Virus record (IMG/VR): IMGVR_UViG_3300028805_000061
Direction: 5' to 3' (one strand)
Source: a virus
Taxonomy: Duplodnaviria > Caudoviricetes
Length of the DNA stretch: 64,000 nucleotides
Positions 10,174-63,736 of the stretch are shown here, piece by piece; the stretch's first letter is position 1, and each line of letters begins with the position of its first letter. Under the pieces are notes generated by a model, which searched no databases, was not told the DNA's origin, and was given only the letters and a program-made list of their open reading frames with translations. A program made the translations under genes and the position numbers.

Positions 10174-10506
10174 ATGCCTACAACAAAAACAAAGCAGTCC
10201 GCTTCAACTGTAAAAGAAGTAAAAGATATTCAAGTAATTGAATTAGTTCGTAGACAAGGTATTTATACTGGTACACTTCAAATTGACAATGTAAAAGAAG
10301 TAGAAAAAATTCTAAGTAATTTTGAAAGAAATGATGGAATTAGAGCTACAGTAAAATCAGTTACACAAATTGAATTTAATGCTAAAGGAGGTAGATCTGG
10401 TAGTAGAGATTATTGTTTAAGATTACCCAATATAGCAATTGAAGATCTCGAAAAAATTGGTTTTACTAAAGATACTAATATGAATAATTTTTATACTTCC
10501 AAATAA
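10174..10506 (+). CDS. Hypothetical protein, paralogue of 13159..13650
   Basis: aaaggagg RBS; by-eye alignment over about 90 aa. Confidence 0.7.
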   Translation: MPTTKTKQSASTVKEVKDIQVIELVRRQGIYTGTLQIDNVKEVEKILSNFERNDGIRATVKSVTQIEFNAKGGRSGSRDYCLRLPNIAIEDLEKIGFTKDTNMNNFYTSK

Positions 10507-10552
10507 AATCATAATGGTAAGATAAACTTCCCCAGAAGTTATATCAACTCCC

Positions 10553-10582
10553 AGGGAGAAATAAATATAATTTCTCCCTTTT
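10553..10582 (+). terminator. Rho-independent terminator
   Basis: agggagaaat/atttctccct stem followed by T-run. Confidence 0.75.
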
Positions 10583-10853
10583 CCATTAAATAATATATTT
10601 TAGAAAGGAAGTATAAAATGCAAGAATTTACAACAGATTCAATAAAAGCTGATACATTTAAACTTATTCAGCCTATGGCAATGGAAAAAATGAAAGATGC
10701 AGTTACTTTAATTGGTTCTATAATGTGCAATTTTAAAGACAATATTTCTATAAAAGATATATATTATTTAGCTATTGCACAAAGTATAATTGCTAATTTA
10801 GATTTGAATTTTCAACAAAATGTATTGAGAGCAAAATATGAGGAGATAAAAAA

Positions 10854-11180
10854 ATGGACAAAATTAAAAAATATAGAGTATGGACGATTATAAATCCACC
10901 AGATGAGCCTATTACAATTCCAGTAAATACAATGGATGAAGCAATTGTTGCTTTAAAAGTATTAGCTAAAATTGGAAATCACCCAGATATTGATAAAGCA
11001 ATGGTAGCTAATGTTTCAGGTTTAGAAGAATATAATGAAAAAGAACAAGAATGGCAAGAATGGTATGATTATAATGGTGAAGATGTTGAATATTATTGGC
11101 AACAAGCTGAATCAGATGATAATCTTACTTTTAATTCTTTCTATATTTTAGAAAGTGAGGCGATAAATGCCAGTACATAA
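10854..11180 (+). CDS. P22 gp17-like (exclusion-related) protein
   Basis: YRVW..INPP..P..IPV...EA..., ANVSGLEEY and EWQEWYD match my recollection of the P22 gp17 family pattern. Confidence 0.55.
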   Translation: MDKIKKYRVWTIINPPDEPITIPVNTMDEAIVALKVLAKIGNHPDIDKAMVANVSGLEEYNEKEQEWQEWYDYNGEDVEYYWQQAESDDNLTFNSFYILESEAINAST

Positions 11181-13158: not shown

Positions 13159-13650
13159 ATGACAGATACACTTATTTTAGAGACTAGAAGGTCTAAGGGG
13201 GTTCATAAAGCTGACCTCACAAAACTTACTAAAGAACAAGTTAAATCAGCTTTAGATTTTTTCAATTCTTCTTCTTACGTAGCAGTTAAAAATTATCGTG
13301 CAAAAGCAGATAATGCTGAAGTAATGGAGATTAAGTTTCACAGACAAGGAGCTAAAGGAATAATCAAATATAGCTTAAAGACTATTCTTACTCCAGAAGA
13401 TTTCAAAGCAATAGGTTTTGAAGATACACCAAATAAAAACTTACATTTAACTCAAAAAGGTTGTACTATAGATAAACTATTTGATGTTGAAGTAAAAGCT
13501 CCAGTAAAGAAAATTTCTTCAAAGAAAACTAAAACTGAAAAAGCAAATGAAGAAAAGAAATCTTCATCAAAGAAACAACCATTACCATTCACTAAGGAAG
13601 CTGCAAAAGCTAAAACTATTGAAGAAACTACAGAAACAAAAGAAGAATAA
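13159..13650 (+). CDS. Hypothetical protein with Lys/Glu-rich tail, paralogue of 10174..10506
   Basis: Shared pattern ending EDxxxIGF; strong RBS. Confidence 0.7.
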   Translation: MTDTLILETRRSKGVHKADLTKLTKEQVKSALDFFNSSSYVAVKNYRAKADNAEVMEIKFHRQGAKGIIKYSLKTILTPEDFKAIGFEDTPNKNLHLTQKGCTIDKLFDVEVKAPVKKISSKKTKTEKANEEKKSSSKKQPLPFTKEAAKAKTIEETTETKEE

Positions 13651-13655
13651 ATAAT

Positions 13656-13691
13656 TTAAAAGGAGATAACTATAAAGTTATCTCCTTTTAA
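13656..13691 (+). terminator. Rho-independent terminator
   Basis: ttaaaaggagataact-ataa-agttatctccttttaa perfect hairpin. Confidence 0.8.
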
Positions 13692-13945
13692 TAGAAAGAT
13701 TTTTATGAAGGAAGTACAACAATTATATAATAAAGTTACAGAGGGAATAGAATCTCCCACTGATTTAGTTTTAAAAGTAAATGATTTGTATTCAGTAATA
13801 CTATTATTAATAACTAAAGCTTTTGAAGTAGCACCAGATGATCAAAAGAATTTAGTTATTGATTCTATAAAGCCTATGACAAATCAATACATTTCTAAAT
13901 TAATGAAATTAGTTACGGACAATGAGTTGAATACAATAGATAAAA

Positions 13946-17708: not shown

Positions 17709-20128
17709 AGGGTTAAATGGTTCAAGGTTATGATTCTTGGTTATACCAACAAGCAGACAATTACATGAGTAGCTTTTGTGAAGGTGAACCAAAAGTAACT
17801 GGAGCTTATAAAGAATTTGAGGGTTACGATGAAGAGGGTAATATAGAAACTTCAACCAGTTATACTTACAATTGCGAAGATTGTGATAATGAAGAATGTG
17901 AATATTGGAAAGATTTTCATTCATAAGGAGAAAATAATGACTGATGATTTTAGTTATAAAAAAGAAGATATTAGACCTTTAGGAACAATAATTTATCCTA
18001 TAAAGTTAGAAGAAAAATCAAAAACTATAAAATGTAAAATTTGTAATGGTACAGGTAAACTATCAGTTACTAGAAATAAGAAAAAATATACTTTTCCTTG
18101 TCCTTGTTGTTTAGGAGAAGGAAAAGATGAAAAATATTATAATGAATGGGTAATACCAAAACTAGTAGACTATAGAATAGGGGGTTATCATATTTCAGCA
18201 ATTGCAGATTCAGCTTTAGGAGAAGCCCATAATTTTGAATTACTAGACATAAAATATAGCACTGTACACGGATATGTATATTATAATCATTCAGACTGTT
18301 TTTTAACTAAAGAAAAGGCTGAAGCTGAATGCAAATACAGAAATAGATTTCCTAGTAGAAAGAGAAGAGATTAAATAATGAAGACTAGAAAAAGACAAGT
18401 AAGAGAAATCTCTTTTTATAAAAGATTAAATCAACTTTGTAAGAAAGTAGAATTTAAACCTGATTTAGCTGAATATATTTATCATTCAATAGTAAATAAT
18501 GTTTCTACTACTGAATTAAATCAAATAAATATTGCACTAGAAAATACTTTAAAGGAGATAGAAATATGTACACATCCATAGAAGGTCTTTCTAATACAAA
18601 TCAAAATTTAGCTTTAGAATTATTGGATAATTATAGAGATAGTGTTAGAGATGAACTTTTTAATATATTAAAGAAAGAATTCAAGAAAAATAAAATATAT
18701 GGAAATGTAGAAAAATCAGCATTCCCCTTAGGAATATACATAGAATTTACTAAAGCTAAAAAACTTTTTGTAAACATTGAATTTACTAATGAAGAAATAA
18801 CTATTTCAGCTGGTTTATTATTAGAAGAAGATATAGATTTCCATATTGATGATACTTTACATTTAAGCGGCTCATTTTTATGTATAACAGAACCTAAAGA
18901 ACAGGCTAAACATTTAGCATATCAAATTATAGAATTTGTAAAACCTCTATACAAATTATCTCAAAAAATTTATATAAGAAAGGGAAATAATGACTAAAGA
19001 AGAACAAATCAAAGAAGCTTTCTATGCAGCTATTCAAGACATAGATCAATGGGCATGTCCTTATACAGACCTAGAAAGTTTAATAAGATATGCAGAAGTA
19101 AATGGTAAGCCTTTTCCAACAGCAACTTCGCAAGCTATTATAGAAGTAATAAGAGCTGAAGGGTATTTCTTTAGAGAAATAACACACGTAGATATATACA
19201 AATTCTTACTAGATTACCCAGAAATTCAAGATGATTATAGCTTTAATATTGAAGATTTAGACGAGATATGTCAAGTAGGACTTGAAGTATGGCTAGATAA
19301 ATCAATAGATATTGATGAATTTCTAAGAAGTTGTATAGCTAATTATTAAAGGAGAATATGATGGCAATAACGAAAAAAGCTAAAGAAAGACAAGCTATAT
19401 TAAGACAAATGTTAATTGATATTCACAAAGATTGTATTGAAGTATCAGATAAATTTCATACACTAGATTTAGTTGATGCAGTTATGTTATCAGTTGCAGA
19501 AAACGTTTCAACTACACAATTAAATCAAATAAACATTTCTTTAAAGAATAGATTGAAGGAGTTTAAAAATGAGTACGTATGATACAGAATTAGATAGTAT
19601 TAACAATATATGTTCTTTGGTTGGAGAGATAATGCAACTTTCTTTAGATATACATTCTAGAACAGGTAATGAACAAATAGAAAAAGATTGTACTTTAATA
19701 GCTAAGAAAGCTACAACTATAAAAAGTAAAGCACAAAGAATGGAAAATAGACTTAAAGAGTATAAAACTACAATAGAGAGTTTAGGTTTTAGAAGAATTA
19801 AAGATAAAAGGAGAAGTAAATGAAAGTAAAAGATATCCAGAAAATAGCTTTAGCTACAGCACAATTCTTAGATTTTGTTGATGAAGTTGCAGATGAGATG
19901 TATCAAGGTTATGATTTTATAGATTATACTTTGCTATGTGTTCATAGAGATGCTTTTTCAAAACTTACAGAAAATGAAGCAGTAGAACTAGTAAAAGCAA
20001 TAGGATTTGCTGTTCTCCCTGGAAATACTTTTGAAGAAATAGATGAACCTACTTTTTCTTTAAAGATCCTATGCAATGAAGAAGATTTAAAAAATAAAGT
20101 AAAGAATTTTATAGAAAAGGAGTTGTAA

Positions 20129-21393: not shown

Positions 21394-22056
21394 ATGAATA
21401 TACTTAACTATGAAGCACAAGAAGTAGATTCTTTAACTGAAATAATAAATAAACAAAAAGTTATAATGTTTGCATTTGAGCCTAATTTAGAACAAAAAGC
21501 AAAAGAATTTGATATAGATATTTATGAAGATCAAATGCTACTTAAAGAGTTTCTTCTAGAAAGAGTAGTTGAAGAAATAACTGAAGCTTTTGCAGCATTT
21601 AGAGCTAAACATTATGAACATTATTTAGAAGAGATTGTAGATGTATTTAATTTTATTATTGAAACACATATACTTTTAAGAAATGTAGTAGAGAATGATT
21701 CAACTCTTCTAAAAGATTTAGCTAATTCTTTTAGCTTATATGAAAAACACATTAAGTTACCTGATTATTTATATCAAGATTTTTGCCCTCCAGAATCCCA
21801 AAGAAGAGCACTTATAAAAAGTGATTTATTTAATATTATTCAACTAATTGGAGAAATTACTAATTTATTAAAACAACGTCCTTGGAGAGAAAGTCAATAT
21901 CCAGTAGATTTACTTACATTTAAGAAAAAATGGTTGGAATTTATTCAAATTTTCTTTGATACTCTAATTCATCAAGGAATTGGTTATGATATTTTATCAG
22001 GTATTTGGTCTAAGAAATATCAAGTAAATAAGTTCCGTATAGAAAGTAATTATTAA
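21394..22056 (+). CDS. All-alpha dNTP pyrophosphatase (dimeric dUTPase/dCTPase, MazG-like fold)
   Basis: EEITEA...LEEIVDVFNF acidic motifs, KQRPWR and KYQVNKFR end motif. Confidence 0.75.
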   Translation: MNILNYEAQEVDSLTEIINKQKVIMFAFEPNLEQKAKEFDIDIYEDQMLLKEFLLERVVEEITEAFAAFRAKHYEHYLEEIVDVFNFIIETHILLRNVVENDSTLLKDLANSFSLYEKHIKLPDYLYQDFCPPESQRRALIKSDLFNIIQLIGEITNLLKQRPWRESQYPVDLLTFKKKWLEFIQIFFDTLIHQGIGYDILSGIWSKKYQVNKFRIESNY

Positions 22057-22424
22057 TATGCATGAAAGAGATTACTATAAAGCTTTATTAATAGAACATT
22101 GCAATAGATATAACAATAAATTAATTCCTACTAGATTTGGTTTTAAACATTTATCTAAACCAAAAGAACTGTATGAGATACAATTTATTTGTAAAAAGGT
22201 TGCAGATACTATTACACAAGAAAAACTGGAACAAAATATAGTTAAACTTTCAGCAATATACCCTAATGTAACTGGTAAACCTCATAAATATTCAAAATAT
22301 AATTCCAAGAGAATTATAAAGAAAGAACAAGATTATATTTATAATGAAGTAAGAGAACGAGAAAAACGCTTAGGTTATTTCTTTGATGCTGCTTCGCAAC
22401 ATATATATGGTAAGGGTTATGACA

Positions 22425-22799
22425 ATGAACAATAATTTGTTAATTGAAAGATTAAACAAACATACTTATTTATTAGAACAAAATGATAAAATTAAGGACC
22501 TTTTTAATAAACTTAGTAAAACATCTTTAAAAATTAAAGGAAGTATATTTAAAGAACGTCAAACTCCAGAACATATTAAAAATTTTGTAGATAAGTTAAT
22601 AGGGAATGATAAAAGATATGATTTAAAAGTAGATTTTGAATCTAGAGAAAAACCTAAATCTAGTTATTCTATAATTTGGTCTAAAAAAGAGCCAGATAAA
22701 TTAGAACTCTTTAAGATAATTAATAGTAGATGGGATAAAAGATTTGTTGATGTTGACTCATCTATAGAAGAAATAGAGAAAGCTTTAAATGATTTTTAA
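22425..22799 (+). CDS. Leader-bearing protein 1, putative virion-internal protein
   Basis: Probable start 22419 or 22425: MNNNLLIERLNKHTYLLE. Confidence 0.55.
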   Translation: MNNNLLIERLNKHTYLLEQNDKIKDLFNKLSKTSLKIKGSIFKERQTPEHIKNFVDKLIGNDKRYDLKVDFESREKPKSSYSIIWSKKEPDKLELFKIINSRWDKRFVDVDSSIEEIEKALNDF

Positions 22800-22815
22800 A
22801 ATAGGAGAATAAATA

Positions 22816-23151
22816 ATGGAGAATAATAAACTATTAGAAAAACTTTTATATCATCTTAATGAAGATGGTTATGGTAAATTAGAAGTCATACTTAGAAATC
22901 TTATAGCTGATGAACAACAAGCCACAGCTGGTTATCTTAAAGCTGCTCATAAAGTAGCTGAAAAAGCTGAAGAAAAAGGCGATTCTTTGGGTTTGAAAAT
23001 AGCTAAAGTTTTTGAAGATTTAGCTAATGAAGAAAAAGTTCATATTGGTGAACTTAAAAAATGTTTAGAACTAATTGGTGTTTCTGATAAAGAGCAACAA
23101 GAAGGTGAAAATGAAGTAGAAGAAATAATAGGAAATGTAGGAAAGGTATAA
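22816..23151 (+). CDS. Leader-bearing half-ferritin/rubrerythrin-like protein
   Basis: IADEQQATAGY and DLANEEKVHIGEL (EExxH) di-iron helices after MENNKLLEKLLYHLNE. Confidence 0.75.
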   Translation: MENNKLLEKLLYHLNEDGYGKLEVILRNLIADEQQATAGYLKAAHKVAEKAEEKGDSLGLKIAKVFEDLANEEKVHIGELKKCLELIGVSDKEQQEGENEVEEIIGNVGKV

Positions 23152-23154
23152 AAA

Positions 23155-23478
23155 ATGAAAAACTTAAGTGAAAGACTGGATAAACATATTCAAAGATTAC
23201 AAGAGATATCTACTTTAGCTTGGGGTAAAGCTGCTGTGAAATCTCTTCCTAAAAGAATAGGTGCAGTGGTAAAAAAACCTTTTAACAAAAATTCTTGGAG
23301 TAGACTAGGTAGAGCTAATAGAATAGCCAATGCTACTAGTAGTGTTGCTAGTAAACCTGGGGGTAAAGCTTTTCTTAAAAATAATTCAGCTAATTCAATA
23401 AAGAAAGCAGTTAATACTAAACTATCAGTAATAAAGAAAGCCCACCCTGTATTAGCAGCTGGTACAAGTCAAATATAA
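23155..23478 (+). CDS. Leader-bearing highly basic protein
   Basis: MKNLSERLDKHIQRLQE, then a K/R/A-rich body with no acidic residues. Confidence 0.65.
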   Translation: MKNLSERLDKHIQRLQEISTLAWGKAAVKSLPKRIGAVVKKPFNKNSWSRLGRANRIANATSSVASKPGGKAFLKNNSANSIKKAVNTKLSVIKKAHPVLAAGTSQI

Positions 23479-23496
23479 AATAGAAAAGGAGCAAAA

Positions 23497-24129
23497 ATGA
23501 AAAACTTAACAGAAAGACTAGATAAACATTTACAGAGTATTAGAGAAGTAAACGGTATAATTTCTAATCAAGAAATATTAAAACTATTAAATAATCCTAC
23601 ATCTAAACTTAAACAAGCTTTTAAAGCTAAAAATAGATGGGGTTCCTCTTTATATCCCCTAGGATTAATTGATGATTTCAAAGATGATCCCTCTAGCGGT
23701 TTTAATGACTCTTATGTAGATGAACCAGTTAATTATATGAAATACTGTATTTGTAAAGCCTCTGGAGTAGAATCTGGTATTGATATAAATCAAGCTATTA
23801 AAGATATTGAAAATAATGTAAAAGAATCTGAAAGATTATATAAAAGAGATCTACCTGAATATAATTATCAAAGTTATAAAGATGAATTATCTTATGATGA
23901 TCAAGCTAAAAAAGAAGCTGAAGAATTAATTAAAAAAGGTGCTGACCCTAGAAAAATATTAATTACTGGGGATGATTCTGGAGATGAAACTATCAATCCT
24001 ATAGATTTTGTAATAGATAGTGAACCTTTTGCTAGAGCTTGTGGGGCTATAGAATTAGCTAATAAAATTAAATCTAATCCCTATTTTAAAAGAGCTAAAG
24101 AATTAAATAATTTAATAATTATTTTATAA
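23497..24129 (+). CDS. Leader-bearing protein 4
   Basis: MKNLTERLDKHLQSIRE. Confidence 0.65.
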   Translation: MKNLTERLDKHLQSIREVNGIISNQEILKLLNNPTSKLKQAFKAKNRWGSSLYPLGLIDDFKDDPSSGFNDSYVDEPVNYMKYCICKASGVESGIDINQAIKDIENNVKESERLYKRDLPEYNYQSYKDELSYDDQAKKEAEELIKKGADPRKILITGDDSGDETINPIDFVIDSEPFARACGAIELANKIKSNPYFKRAKELNNLIIIL

Positions 24130-24149
24130 TAAATTAAGAGGTAATAAAA

Positions 24150-24632
24150 ATGAACTTAACAGAAAGACTAGATAAACATTTACAGAGTATTAGAGAAGAA
24201 GCTAATTATTCTTCAACTGAATTCTTTAAAGAGTTAAAAGATTATAATTATAGAGATGATAAAGATTTCGCTAAGTTAGTTTATGAATTATTAAAACCTA
24301 CTGTAGATTCACAAGGAGATAAATTTATAGCACCTAATTTCAATTCCTTAAAACCTCTAATAATTAAAGACATTAAATACAATATAGATGTCATGGAAGA
24401 AGATGGTATGGATAGACAAGAAGCTATAGAATACCTTTTAAACCCTACTAAATATGATTCTGAAATTGGGAATTATGCTGATACTTCTTTTGCTGATATG
24501 TTAGATGATGGTCATGATGGTAAAATCAATAAAGCTAGTAAAATTATAGTAAAATTCTTTGATGATACAGTAGATTATTTAAAAAGAGAAATTAAAAAGA
24601 ATTACAGAGCTTTGATACAAGCTGTAAAATAA
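24150..24632 (+). CDS. Leader-bearing protein 5
   Basis: MNLTERLDKHLQSIRE; 46 nt identical to the 23497 leader. Confidence 0.65.
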   Translation: MNLTERLDKHLQSIREEANYSSTEFFKELKDYNYRDDKDFAKLVYELLKPTVDSQGDKFIAPNFNSLKPLIIKDIKYNIDVMEEDGMDRQEAIEYLLNPTKYDSEIGNYADTSFADMLDDGHDGKINKASKIIVKFFDDTVDYLKREIKKNYRALIQAVK

Positions 24633-24704: not shown

Positions 24705-25226
24705 ATGATGTTTTTAGTATTAGCAAAAACTCCAATAGGAGCAGTAGATTATCTATTAGAACATACTAGTAGAAAATACTTAAAAGTTCAAATTAAAGAA
24801 CTTTGTCAACTTATATGTTCAGCTGGTTATTCAGATGTATATGACAAGATACCTCAAGGTAAAGAAATTCAAAACTGGATAAAAGCTAATCATACAAATG
24901 AACTTTATGTTTGGTATTATCTACATTATGCATTTCATATATTATATATACCTAGTTTTGGAAATGCTTATAATGTACCAGAAAAACAAAGACAAATTTT
25001 TAATGATTTTACAGAAAAAATAACTTTAAAAGACTGGGATAAGACAAATGCTACAGATATAAAAACAGCAATTTTTAGATATCAAAAACAATATAAAGAA
25101 TATACAACGTATGAGACAAATATTGAATTGCCAATTGATATTTGTATTAAAGAATATAGAAAATATTTAAAATGGAAAATAGAACAAAATAAAGATTATT
25201 TTAAGAAAGAGGTAGTAGGATGTTAG
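24705..25226 (+). CDS. Possible pyrimidine-dimer DNA glycosylase (DenV-like) family protein
   Basis: FLVL..TP..A...KYLKVQIKELCQLICS resembles the family's KHxxKMxxExxQLL pattern; YRKY near the C-terminus. Confidence 0.4.
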   Translation: MMFLVLAKTPIGAVDYLLEHTSRKYLKVQIKELCQLICSAGYSDVYDKIPQGKEIQNWIKANHTNELYVWYYLHYAFHILYIPSFGNAYNVPEKQRQIFNDFTEKITLKDWDKTNATDIKTAIFRYQKQYKEYTTYETNIELPIDICIKEYRKYLKWKIEQNKDYFKKEVVGC

Positions 25227-26042
25227 TAATACCCCTAGTTTTATTAAGAAAGGAGTAGATTAAATAATGAAATTAACTTATCAATTGGATAAAACTATTT
25301 TTAATATCAAATTATTAAAATCTATATCAGAAATAAAAATAATTAATGACTATGAAGAACAAGAAGTTAGAAAAAGAATAGATAAACAAGTAGATGAATC
25401 AACTTCCCAATTCAATACAAGGTTTCCTAAAATATCCCCAGTACATATCTATATTGATTATGAAAAAGAATGTAAAACAATAGAAATATACATAGATGAA
25501 AAATTATACAGATGTTCTAATTATAATCTTATAAAGGAAGATTCTAAACTAGGTTTAATTATTCCAATATCGACTAAATGTAGAATAACAACAGAATCTC
25601 AAAAAGAATTTGATATATTTAAAAATCAAGCAGAAAATTTATTAGAAGCATTTAAGAAATTATAGAAAGAGAGGTTAATAGATGAAAACTGTTCAACTAG
25701 TAGCAGGTGAAATAGAATCAAATTACCCTATAAAACAATTCAAGGAACTTAATATCTTTAGTGAATATTTTTTAGTAGATAAGGGTAATGATCCACATGT
25801 AAGAATATTAAGATACTTTGATGATATAAAAGAATGGTATATTATTCGTTTAGATAGTTTTTGTACAAATAAATTAGAATTAGATATAGAAGAACTATGT
25901 GAAAGATTTTATGTATATTGTATACCAGAATTTACTGGTGGAAGTGATGGTATTTACTTAAATAATGAAGAGAGTAGAGAAGCTAGAAAAGAACTTTTAA
26001 AATTTCTAATTAATAAATATATGTAGTTAAAGGAGTGAATAA

Positions 26043-26774
26043 GTGACTAGAATATTTAGAGATTGTGAACAATATATAAAAGAAATAGATAGAGAACTAT
26101 TTCAATCTGGTATAACAGTACCAGTAAATCACTATCAGAATAAACAATTAGAAGGTGAAAATAAGAATACCAAAGAAATAATTGGAGTTAGTGCTTGTAT
26201 TTCTAATCCACTTAGAAAACGTAAAGAGATGTTAGAACATATTTTTAAAGATGATGCAGAAAGAATAGAAAAATACTGTATTCAAGAATTTAAAGATAGA
26301 ATTTCTCCTATACCATTAAATCCTGGTGAATCTTATAAAATTAGAAAAGATGTTTGGCAAAAATTTATGGTGGAAGATGAAACTAAATTTGATTATACAT
26401 ATAGTGAAAGACTATATGATAAATGGCAATATATAATCGCTACTTTAAAGGAAGATAAACATTCAAGACAAGCTTTAATGGAAGTATTTAAACCAGATGA
26501 TTTAGAAAAACATGGAGGAGATACTAGAATACCCTGTAGTATATGTTATCAATATTTAATTAGGAATAATCAATTACATTGTATTTATACAATGAGAAGT
26601 AATGATTATTTCGGTCATCATCCTATAGATATATGGTTAGCAGCAGAAAGTATTTTATATTTACAAGAAGAGCTTGTTAAAGTTTACCCAAAATTACAAA
26701 CCGGTAAGTTATACTATCAAGCTGGTTCACTTCATGCTTATCAATGGGATTTAAAAGAAAGGTTATTATTTTAA
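26043..26774 (+). CDS. Thymidylate-synthase homologue, dCMP-hydroxymethylase-like
   Basis: YTYSERL, SRQA, catalytic IPC, MRSND-x7-D and GSLHAY. Confidence 0.8.
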   Translation: MTRIFRDCEQYIKEIDRELFQSGITVPVNHYQNKQLEGENKNTKEIIGVSACISNPLRKRKEMLEHIFKDDAERIEKYCIQEFKDRISPIPLNPGESYKIRKDVWQKFMVEDETKFDYTYSERLYDKWQYIIATLKEDKHSRQALMEVFKPDDLEKHGGDTRIPCSICYQYLIRNNQLHCIYTMRSNDYFGHHPIDIWLAAESILYLQEELVKVYPKLQTGKLYYQAGSLHAYQWDLKERLLF

Positions 26775-34197: not shown

Positions 34198-35552
34198 TGT
34201 CAAGTATATGGCAAAGCAAAGTAGTAGCAATAAATCCTTTGAAAGAAAATAATGAAATTACTGGTTATGCTATTGTAAGTAAAGAACATAAACATTTTTA
34301 TGGATCAAATATAGATTTAGATCATATTTTAAAAGATGCAAAAGGAAAAATTTATTTTGATGCTCCCAGCGAGAGATATAATTTTAGAGCATTGTATTAT
34401 CAGTTAAAGCCAAATATAAAATTTCAAAATATTTCAGATATTGTAAAGCAAGAATATTATACTACTAATGTAAAAGATATCTTATATTTTGTAAAAAGAG
34501 AAGGAGCAAAACAAGCTGTTATTGAAGCTTGTTTTATGTTAGAGTTTTTCAAGAAAAATTACAAAGAGCGAAATGATAAAATCTATCATTTAGATAAAAA
34601 TCTTTTGAATTTGACAAGTAATTATGAGAGTGAAATTTCTATTAATAAAATTCAATTAAGAACTGATTTAAGTTTATACCAAAAGAAAAGATGGGATACA
34701 GAAAGGAAATTGTTTGAAAAAACAGGTTACCCTATTCAAAATCAATTTTCTATTGATAATCCAAAATTAAGAGAAAGTTCTAGTGTTGTAAAAGTTTTAG
34801 ATCAAATTAAAGACTATAAAAGTAAGGTAAACTATTTAGAAAAATATTTAGATCTTCCTAAAATAGTATTAAACTTTGATATTACTGCTACTGCTACAGG
34901 AAGAATACTCTGTAGAGATAAACAAAATAATATAGGATTATTTGCTCCAGATAAAAACTATAGATATTTATTTCCAGCTAAGAAAGAATTTATTTTTATT
35001 TCAGCTGATTACAAGAGACAAGAAGCTTGTATATTAGCTAAAGTAAGTAATGATAAACAATTAGAACAAGATATACAAGAAGAAGATTTTTATTCTAGAT
35101 TAGCAAGATGGACAATAAGAGAAACTAAAAAACAAATAGGTAAAACTTTATTTTATGCAGTAATTTATGGAGCAAAATCCCAAACAGTTGCAGAAGAATT
35201 AAAGATAGATATTGATACAATAAAGCAAGCAATTAGAAAAATTAAAAATCGATATAAGAGCCTTTCCAGTTGGTTAGAAGATTTTGATGAAAATACTAAT
35301 TATTTTGGTAGACCATTACATAATAATACAGTTAATGCTTATGTACAAAGTACTGCTGCTGATATATTAAAAGATAGATTAATTGCTACTTTTAATTATA
35401 GTCCAGCTTTAATTTTGTCTGATAACATAATTTATCAAATTAAAGATGTAGATATTCAGAGAAAAATTGAAAATATCAAGTTATTATTACAGAAAACTAG
35501 CCCTTTTAATTTGAAAGTTGATATAAAAACTAGTTATAATTTATCTTTTTAA
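34197..35552 (+). CDS. Minimal/divergent family A DNA polymerase
   Basis: TATGRI, motif A ADYKRQE, motif B KQIGKTLFYAVIYG, NAYVQSTAADILK, motif C LSDN. Confidence 0.8.
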   Translation: MSSIWQSKVVAINPLKENNEITGYAIVSKEHKHFYGSNIDLDHILKDAKGKIYFDAPSERYNFRALYYQLKPNIKFQNISDIVKQEYYTTNVKDILYFVKREGAKQAVIEACFMLEFFKKNYKERNDKIYHLDKNLLNLTSNYESEISINKIQLRTDLSLYQKKRWDTERKLFEKTGYPIQNQFSIDNPKLRESSSVVKVLDQIKDYKSKVNYLEKYLDLPKIVLNFDITATATGRILCRDKQNNIGLFAPDKNYRYLFPAKKEFIFISADYKRQEACILAKVSNDKQLEQDIQEEDFYSRLARWTIRETKKQIGKTLFYAVIYGAKSQTVAEELKIDIDTIKQAIRKIKNRYKSLSSWLEDFDENTNYFGRPLHNNTVNAYVQSTAADILKDRLIATFNYSPALILSDNIIYQIKDVDIQRKIENIKLLLQKTSPFNLKVDIKTSYNLSF

Positions 35553-44181: not shown

Positions 44182-44769
44182 ATGACATTAGAAAGCACTA
44201 TATTACAATACCCTAAACCAAAACAGAGATATTTTGATGAAATGTATATGCAAATGGCAGTAAATATGGCTAAACTTTCCACTTGTGCAAGGGTTCAAGT
44301 TGGTGCTGTTTTAGTAATAGATGACAGGCCTTTGCTAAGTGGTTATAATGGATCACCAAGAGGACACCAGCATTGTATTGATATATTTCAAGAAAAATAT
44401 GAAAAATACTGTAGATCAAATAAAGAACCCATTAGTATATTTACTTTTAAAGATTTTATGAGTTTACCAGAAATAAAAGATGAACATGGTAAATTTTCTA
44501 GATTACATGAAGTACATGCTGAAATAAATATTATAGGTCAAGCTGCTTATAAGGGATTATCTACAAAAGGAGGTAAACTTTATGTAACATGTAGTCCTTG
44601 TAATGATTGTTGTAAATCTATATTAACAGCTGGAATAAAAGAAGTTGTATTTAAAGATTTATATGATAGAGAAACAGAAGGCTTAGAAATATTAGCTCAA
44701 TCAAAAGTATTGATAAGACAATTAATAATAGAGGATAGAGAAGTTAAGGAGAATTTACAATGGCAATAA
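44182..44769 (+). CDS. dCMP deaminase
   Basis: STC.R..VGAV, GYNG, HAE and SPCNDC; ggagg RBS favours start 44182. Confidence 0.9.
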   Translation: MTLESTILQYPKPKQRYFDEMYMQMAVNMAKLSTCARVQVGAVLVIDDRPLLSGYNGSPRGHQHCIDIFQEKYEKYCRSNKEPISIFTFKDFMSLPEIKDEHGKFSRLHEVHAEINIIGQAAYKGLSTKGGKLYVTCSPCNDCCKSILTAGIKEVVFKDLYDRETEGLEILAQSKVLIRQLIIEDREVKENLQWQ

Positions 44770-63064: not shown

Positions 63065-63736
63065 ATGTCACATATAGAAAAGAATTTAATTTCAAATAAA
63101 TCAGCTTGTTATATTTTTGATATTGATGGTTGTATGGCTGATGTAAATCATTTAATATTAACTCATAAAGAAGCTTATGAAGCTAATATGAATAAGTATA
63201 AGTTAGCTGAAGAAAAATATCAAAGAGATTATAAAGCTTATGAGTATGAACTTAATCAATTTAACAAAGGTTTTATAAAGGATAAACCTATTGAACCAAC
63301 AAAACCAGATGCTCCATTAAAATATGAAGCAGCTAAAAAAGATAAGATAGATTATAAGTATTTTTATAATAATTTATCTGAAGCAACTCCTATAGAGGGG
63401 GTTATTGACTTATTTATTGCATTAGCATTAACTAAGAAAGTAATAATTCTTACTGGAAGAAATGAAAATAGTCGAAGTGATACTTTAGAATGGCTTAAAA
63501 AAGTAATTGAAGATAAATATAATTCTGATATGTATAGAAGAATTAATTTTCAAATGATATTTAAACCAGAAAAGGATAATAATTCTACAGAAAAATTTAA
63601 AAAGGAAAAAATTCTTGAATTAGCTAAACAGTATAATATTCAACTTATTATAGATGATTGTCCAGCTAATATAGAAGAGTTTACTAAACTAGGTTTTCTT
63701 GTATTATCACCCAATAAAGAGTATAGAGAATTATAA
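63065..63736 (+). CDS. HAD phosphatase (PNKP 3'-phosphatase-like)
   Basis: IFDIDG, ILTGR, K and IIDD motifs. Confidence 0.85.
   Translation: MSHIEKNLISNKSACYIFDIDGCMADVNHLILTHKEAYEANMNKYKLAEEKYQRDYKAYEYELNQFNKGFIKDKPIEPTKPDAPLKYEAAKKDKIDYKYFYNNLSEATPIEGVIDLFIALALTKKVIILTGRNENSRSDTLEWLKKVIEDKYNSDMYRRINFQMIFKPEKDNNSTEKFKKEKILELAKQYNIQLIIDDCPANIEEFTKLGFLVLSPNKEYREL

Follow-up and report, generated by a model that had tools for sequence, protein, structure and literature searches.

How does a tailed phage come to carry, one behind the other, five genes whose products resemble each other only in their first residues, and what are these residues for? The question is raised by a locus in a 64,000-nt stretch of DNA from an uncultured phage of the animal gut (IMG/VR record IMGVR_UViG_3300028805_000061), called the window below. 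Five adjacent genes of the + strand (22425-24632), designated A to E and separated by gaps of 3-20 nt, each open with a related leader of 16-18 residues, and all five leaders end with the motif [L/I]-x-E. An earlier note on this DNA had proposed that the five proteins are unrelated cargoes behind a common leader, which would target them to the capsid and be released by a protease.

A hidden Markov model (HMM) was built from the five leaders and compared with 603 start-codon candidates, taken from the open reading frames (ORFs) of at least 40 aa on both strands. Only A to E were retrieved, with E-values from 2e-12 to 1e-4, and the best match outside the cassette had an E-value of 0.49. The back-translated leader core has 5 occurrences in the window, where 0.25 would be expected. 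Pairwise comparisons of the five bodies with BLASTP and phmmer gave no significant similarity. The description of five consecutive genes sharing a leader but not a body was thus borne out. A sixth member had been suggested at position 25267, and it was discarded since its leader HMM E-value of 9.1 corresponds to chance. The body of this candidate could be aligned with that of D at 27% identity over 74 aa with an E-value of 0.004, obtained on a nine-sequence database without composition correction and not taken as significant.

The five bodies differ widely. Gene A (22425-22799, + strand, 124 aa), whose start overlaps an upstream 125-aa gene, has an 18-residue leader (22425-22478) ending with L-L-E and a 106-aa body; its leader HMM E-value was 1e-7 and P0134 is its orthologue. 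Gene B (22816-23151, + strand, 111 aa) has a 16-residue leader (22816-22863) ending with L-N-E, followed by a half-ferritin hairpin of the EncFtn/rubrerythrin type. Gene C (23155-23478, + strand, 107 aa) has a 17-residue leader (23155-23205) ending with L-Q-E. Its 90-aa body contains 18 Lys and Arg residues and no Asp or Glu, for an isoelectric point of 12, and has the lowest acidic fraction among the + strand ORFs of the window; the body of its orthologue P0004 is likewise devoid of Asp and Glu. Gene D (23497-24129, + strand, 210 aa) has a 17-residue leader (23497-23547) ending with I-R-E and an all-helical body. It was modelled with AlphaFold2 (AF2) from alignment A6 with a predicted local distance difference test (pLDDT) of 88.8 and a predicted template modelling score of 0.82, the leader being at a pLDDT of 50-56 with residues 13-18 below 50. 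No structural look-alike of D was found in PDB, BFVD or ESM Atlas. Gene E (24150-24632, + strand, 160 aa) has a 16-residue leader (24150-24197) ending with I-R-E and an acidic body, as has D. Its orthologues are P0002, P0101, P0108 and a gene of L073 (9040-9525, 96% identity).

To follow the leader beyond the window, profile A5, made of leader-bearing N-termini, was searched against 5.8 billion proteins using the 'longer' lengths, and 55 proteins matched; leader searches by 'region' returned orthologues only. Together with the window and the loci that were fetched, these matches amounted to 63 leader proteins, distributed in 12 cargo clusters with no mutual BLAST link. The leader is almost invariant in the 28 members that are not half-ferritins, with the consensus M-[TK]-N-L-[TN]-E-R-L-D-K-H-L-Q-S-I-[RK]-E. 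Within this set P1 is Glu in 28/28 members and P3 is I, L or V in 28/28, while P1' is occupied by 10 different residues; conservation therefore stops exactly at the [ILV]-x-E site. The ferritin-type leaders end with L-N-E or I-N-E. The HMM scan advocated by the earlier note for the window and its relatives thus recovered the five window genes in the former and 12 cargo groups overall.

Arrangements of a comparable kind, with other motifs, were observed in other phages. In a 103-kb gut phage (L019), three genes (13367-13804, 19104-19790 and 19805-20122) have in common a 20-residue leader ending with N-E in front of differing bodies, and the half-ferritin of this phage (10001-10588) carries a 93-residue N-terminal extension in place of the leader. 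A fragment of a very large phage with a GC content of 42% (L037, 4987-9169) encodes seven or eight consecutive genes with a common N-terminal motif that contains D-I-A-x-L-I-T-E-D-P-D and occurs twice in one of them; the run lies directly upstream of a half-ferritin gene. The very short N-terminal motifs of L030, and partly those of L043, are perhaps compositional in these AT-rich genomes and were not used as evidence.

The content of the cassette was then compared between related phages. Loci L070 and L071 belong to ENA ERZ1024266 scaffold_23 (141.8 kb), which shows synteny to the window with 50-96% identity between the proteins, and the genes flanking the cassettes of L071 and L073 are 54-96% identical to those of the window. 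In L071, five leader genes are located between the MazG-like gene and the orthologue of 24705-25226. Only one of them, the orthologue of B (93% identity), is in common with the window, the other four matching in the leader alone. The cassette of L073 has two cargoes in common with L071 and a further one distantly related to a third L071 cargo, besides B and the orthologue of E mentioned above, so that B is the only cargo common to all three cassettes. The orthologue of D was found at 57% identity in L070 (10001-10609), about 11 kb off and in a different neighbourhood. Further rearrangements were seen in other relatives. In L012-L014 an E-like gene is directly 5' of a B-like gene, and in L015 a homologue of the 125-aa gene of the left flank is directly 5' of a half-ferritin with an A-like leader. 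In L018, a syntenic relative at a greater distance (35-57% identity), two genes in a row downstream of the MazG-like gene bear a leader variant particular to this phage.

The locus is thus hypervariable, its cargo differing between the window, L071 and L073 and D having been relocated in L070. Judging from these comparisons, the gene block is a recombination hotspot, in which the leader DNA plausibly serves as the recombination handle. Because there are 12 cargo groups, because the cassette exists in three versions with conserved genes on either side and because the D orthologue has moved, we regard it as well supported by the sequences that the leader is a portable module placed on unrelated and exchangeable cargo. 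The earlier note had anticipated both the swappable cargo and the role of the leader DNA; the former proposition holds and the latter is plausible.

Two features of the related loci are recorded here. In L071 (11248-11634) and L073 (6615-6986), the gene that follows the MazG-like gene stands in place of the 125-aa gene and gene A of the window. It was not detected by the leader HMM; its 13-residue start, ending with L-T-E, is loosely similar to the A leader and it may represent a thirteenth cargo group. In L073 alone, a 186-aa gene (10458-11018) is inserted just 5' of the ThyA-like gene and resembles, by eye, a GIY-YIG-type homing endonuclease.

Gene B is the one cargo whose family could be recognized, and it provides a link to the phage head. 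It matched Pfam Rubrerythrin with an E-value of 1e-4 and a score of 22.9 for a cut-off of 22.8, and NCBIfam EncB_fam with an E-value of 4e-6 and a score of 26.8, below the cut-off of 90. Among its 60 homologues, residues E33, Y40, E73 and H76 are invariant in alignment A3. The AF2 model consists of a leader helix (residues 2-14, pLDDT about 62), a loop (15-19) and a hairpin (20-86, pLDDT above 90), so that B combines a two-helix hairpin with the ferroxidase-type residues E, Y and ExxH. With Foldseek, EncFtn 5n5e and rubrerythrins ranked at the top with weak E-values. Taking the profile matches and the model together, we assign cargo B to the EncFtn-like half-ferritins. Part of its homologues carry a similar N-terminal leader and part begin directly at the ferritin core. 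No encapsulin shell gene was found in the neighbourhood of B, and the tag common to the cassette is N-terminal. In the AF2 models of both B and D, the leader is predicted as a low-confidence helix detached from the confident bodies.

The half-ferritin domain is encoded at 45 IMG/VR loci. In three of them (L038-L040) it is part of a single ORF, between the Phage_portal and Phage_Mu_F domains, and in all records with a MuF match (9/9) it lies at most 1.3 kb from MuF. In the complete genomes of L042 and L031, the half-ferritin has the portal gene on one side and the MuF, protease and major head genes on the other, and adjoins small genes with common N-terminal motifs. A Peptidase_S77 protease, of the gp21 type, was detected in 15/32 IMG/VR records with the half-ferritin domain, and in 2 of these S77-bearing records the half-ferritin opens with M-K-F-K-E-F-[IM]-L-N-E. 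The capsid-targeting sequence (CTS) of phage T4 is M-K-T-Y-Q-E-F-I-A-E, which this start resembles. The giant ORF of L038 (170-3433), as those of L039 and L040, encodes an intein-containing portal, the EncFtn/rubrerythrin-like half-ferritin and MuF in one chain. The strong Peptidase_S77 matches of two IMG/VR phages, G030 (13294-13734; L076) and G031 (34576-35064; L075), have one in-frame TGA each, which may be a recoded stop or reflect an alternative genetic code.

We consider it somewhat probable that the leader loads the proteins into the prohead and is cut off after its Glu. The N-terminal segment of 16-18 residues would act as a portable address tag at the protein level, most likely by docking otherwise unrelated proteins onto the core of the assembling prohead. 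The head-maturation protease would then cut after the invariant Glu of [I/L/V]-x-E, and the cargo would stay in the head and enter the host with the DNA. Homology over roughly 45 nt of leader DNA would let the cargo genes be replaced, reordered and moved. Prohead binding, cleavage, packaging, injection and the functions of the cargoes are steps that we infer. Capsid loading and cleavage are the best available explanation because of the Glu boundary, the association of the family of B with the head, the acid-free body of C and the detachment of the leader from the fold, and to this indirect extent the targeting and release advanced in the earlier note are supported. In its most inclusive form, the proposition would be that an animal-gut phage lineage of about 142-145 kb, with replication genes unrelated to those of T4, has its own portable capsid-loading tag packing at least 12 exchangeable protein families, among them an encapsulin-type half-ferritin that other phages incorporate into the portal/MuF part of the head. 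We put this wider statement forward tentatively, as possible rather than probable.

Several observations weigh against capsid loading. By inspection, the leader is unlike the T4 CTS in both sequence and length. Many half-ferritins of head modules do not have this leader, so that the link to the head through B is one of association. Apart from B, none of the cargoes, neither those of the window (A, C, D and E) nor those of the other groups, had a reliable match in Pfam, PHROGs or NCBIfam. The cassette is embedded among closely spaced small genes adjoining nucleotide-metabolism genes; no promoter specific to it could be recognised, nor a motif in common with the tail-fibre genes. The leader DNA is conserved down to the rare codons AAC, CTA and CAG, and part of the leader conservation may therefore be recombinational instead of functional. 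Finally, no head gene or head protease of this lineage was seen, the head module lying outside the 64,000 nt analysed.

Other explanations of the leader were weighed against the same data. Ordinary paralogy, with bodies that diverged past recognition around a conserved N-terminal helix, would agree with tandem genes of similar size. This is hardly credible and already contradicted, since close relatives have this leader at this locus on other bodies. The folds and compositions also differ (B is a half-ferritin hairpin, C is basic and acid-free, and D has a helical domain of 190 residues), the bodies have no pairwise similarity and some homologues of the B body have no leader. We also considered whether the 5' end might be mainly a DNA or RNA module, either a handle for recombination or gene conversion or a translation-initiation cassette, encoding a peptide without function. 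The nucleotide sequences offer this idea some ground. The D leader (23503-23548, +) and the E leader (24153-24198) are identical over 46 nt, after which identity is 34% over the next 100 nt. The coordinates and this drop confirm the earlier observation that identity ends one base past the Glu codon, and such identity marks, as far as can be read from the sequence, a recent recombination or gene conversion. The rare codons occur in all copies, and leader DNA of such similarity fits frequent events of this kind. The region is in addition less structured than shuffled sequences, which would favour initiation. At the same time, the copies differ synonymously at kept residues (CTA/CTG/TTA, CAA/CAG, GAA/GAG), including five synonymous sites between the two leaders of L018. 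Divergent relatives retain the helix pattern and the terminal Glu in other sequences (alignment A3), the upstream ribosome-binding regions are not common to the leader genes, and no RNA structure was found in the leader (z-scores of +0.2 to +1.4). Because of the synonymous differences, the pattern kept in divergent relatives, the unshared upstream regions and the unstructured RNA, we consider that the leader peptide itself is under selection, DNA identity accounting for the swapping of cargo, and a module acting mainly as nucleic acid appears distinctly improbable.

The leader could instead be an uncleaved docking helix that gathers effectors at one site in the infected cell by binding a partner other than the prohead. 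This partner might be a hub protein of the phage or of its host, a chaperone (for instance the phage DnaJ-domain protein) or another part of the virion. The amphipathic leader helix is almost invariant over 12 cargo groups, as a single binding partner would predict. The genes around the cassette are of the early type, and the cassette shows no late-type promoter; a DnaJ-domain gene is present just past the window and no protease was seen within its 64 kb. A docking helix leaves unexplained that conservation ends exactly after the Glu of [ILV]-x-E with P1' free, that the family of B is associated with the head elsewhere and that C is similar to a DNA-condensing internal protein. We hold it to be rather unlikely, and loading into the prohead followed by cleavage remains the explanation that we favour.

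The surroundings of the cassette are as follows. With a G+C content of 24-34%, mostly about 26%, the window appears from its gene content to belong to a large tailed phage. A tail-fibre gene runs in at its left end and is followed by a long series of small + strand genes. Genes for nucleotide metabolism (MazG-like, ThyA-like and ThyX) and replication (a family A polymerase, a DnaB-like helicase, a UvsX-like recombinase and a primase) are present. The proteins of the window recur on 144.7 kb ENA contigs (ERZ27256871) and on short JGI and Logan contigs; on the ENA contig, baseplate and tail-fibre genes are located just upstream of the window. Beyond its other end, a 235-aa DnaJ-domain protein is encoded directly after the HAD/PNKP-like gene (63065-63736), and a 3D-domain gene about 8 kb further on. 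A comparison of promoters, terminators and upstream motifs gave nothing above chance.

No close relative was found among cultured phages or in IMG/VR. Cultured phages gave no DNA or protein match to the locus, to D, to B or to other half-ferritins. In IMG/VR, the leader DNA pattern was not found and no relatives were obtained with alignment A2 or the UvsX-like protein; a search with the ThyA-like gene yielded L004 alone, which has only nucleotide-modification genes in common with the window. A degenerate leader pattern gave five matches in JGI metagenomes, all due to chance. The contig of P0073 (L068) has neither a shared leader family nor a T4 context.

The cassette is bounded by conserved genes of the + strand. 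The left flank (21394-22435) consists of a MazG-like pyrophosphohydrolase (21394-22056) and the 125-aa gene (22058-22435), with a phrog_12184 match at an E-value of 3e-9; orthologues of the MazG-like gene are found upstream of the leader cassette in L018, L071 and L073. The right flank (24705-25226) is a 173-aa gene with no leader, of which orthologues of 72-73% identity end the cassette in L071 and L073. On a larger scale, the cassette sits between the MazG-like gene and a ThyA-like gene (26043-26774), which has an Asp in the context H-P-I-D and may be specific for dCMP. In L004 (8024-12402), only an asparagine-synthase-like gene separates the MazG-like and ThyA-like genes, and a 396-aa ORF with no family assigned as well as a 40% identical homologue of window gene 44182-44769 are located 3' of the pair. 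This arrangement of the MazG-like and ThyA-like genes in the window and in L004 suggests that the cassette was inserted into a base-modification module.

If the tag does load the head, it would mark a list of injected first-strike proteins in uncultured phages, comprising at least 12 families among which the ferritin-like one alone has a recognisable function. It would also provide a compact handle of 17 residues to package foreign proteins into a non-T4 capsid. On the wider and more tentative statement given above, ferritin-like enzymes would be regular contents of DNA-filled phage heads, and loading by means of a tag would be an ancient property common to HK97-fold shells, whether of phage heads or of encapsulins. 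Even without a role in the capsid, the locus clearly illustrates how cassettes are exchanged in nature by way of a short conserved coding leader.

Four known systems are relevant for comparison. In encapsulins, a short terminal peptide directs diverse cargo inside an HK97-fold shell, as the leader would in the locus described here. Encapsulin tags usually occur at the C-terminus and stay on the cargo, whereas the window genes encode an N-terminal tag that ends at a boundary of the protease type and would serve a phage head filled with DNA. Cargo B, being similar to the half-ferritin EncFtn, has its counterpart in encapsulated ferritin (PMC5012862). Half-ferritins located in head modules, fused to portals or fused to MuF may constitute a functional link between phage heads and encapsulins, for which no paper was found in the literature searched. 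The polyvalent or polymorphic head proteins of the MuF type also deliver variable domains inside the capsid (PMC5512222), and the half-ferritin is fused beside MuF in L038 and encoded beside it in nine records. Proteins of this class hold their cargo by covalent fusion to a large structural carrier, whereas free small proteins with a 17-residue tag are found here. The inner-body and ejection proteins of phages phiKZ, 201phi2-1 and SPN3US would be comparable in that many such proteins are loaded inside the head and trimmed after Glu at a minimal motif, their propeptides being cut after S/A-x-E by gp21-related proteases (PMC9026906). These propeptides are long and heterogeneous, with no single portable tag, and have S or A in P3 in place of I, L or V.

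The closest parallel is with the internal proteins of T4. There, ten N-terminal residues of IPIII are enough for packaging, and the protease gp21 cleaves after L/I-X-E (PMC9026906); in T-even phages the leader is the sole similarity between the internal proteins, which inhibit distinct GmrSD enzymes and whose genes map to a hotspot of the genome (PMC12373910, PMC3012670). In both systems, a short N-terminal leader is all that unrelated small proteins have in common. In both, it ends with L/I-x-E, as found here for the five window genes and, with I, L or V, for 28/28 relatives. In both cases, moreover, the genes occupy a hypervariable hotspot, and related phages have different sets of genes there (PMC12373910, PMC3012670, PMC9026906). 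The differences are that the present leader has another sequence and 16-18 residues instead of 10, that one of its cargoes is ferritin-like and that the system is known here from its genes alone. The phage is also not recognisable as a relative of T4, encodes a family A polymerase and has no cultured relative, its head genes being located outside the window. Seen at the level of the genome sequence, the locus is thus the internal-protein architecture of T4, equipped with a different tag, in an unrelated genome.

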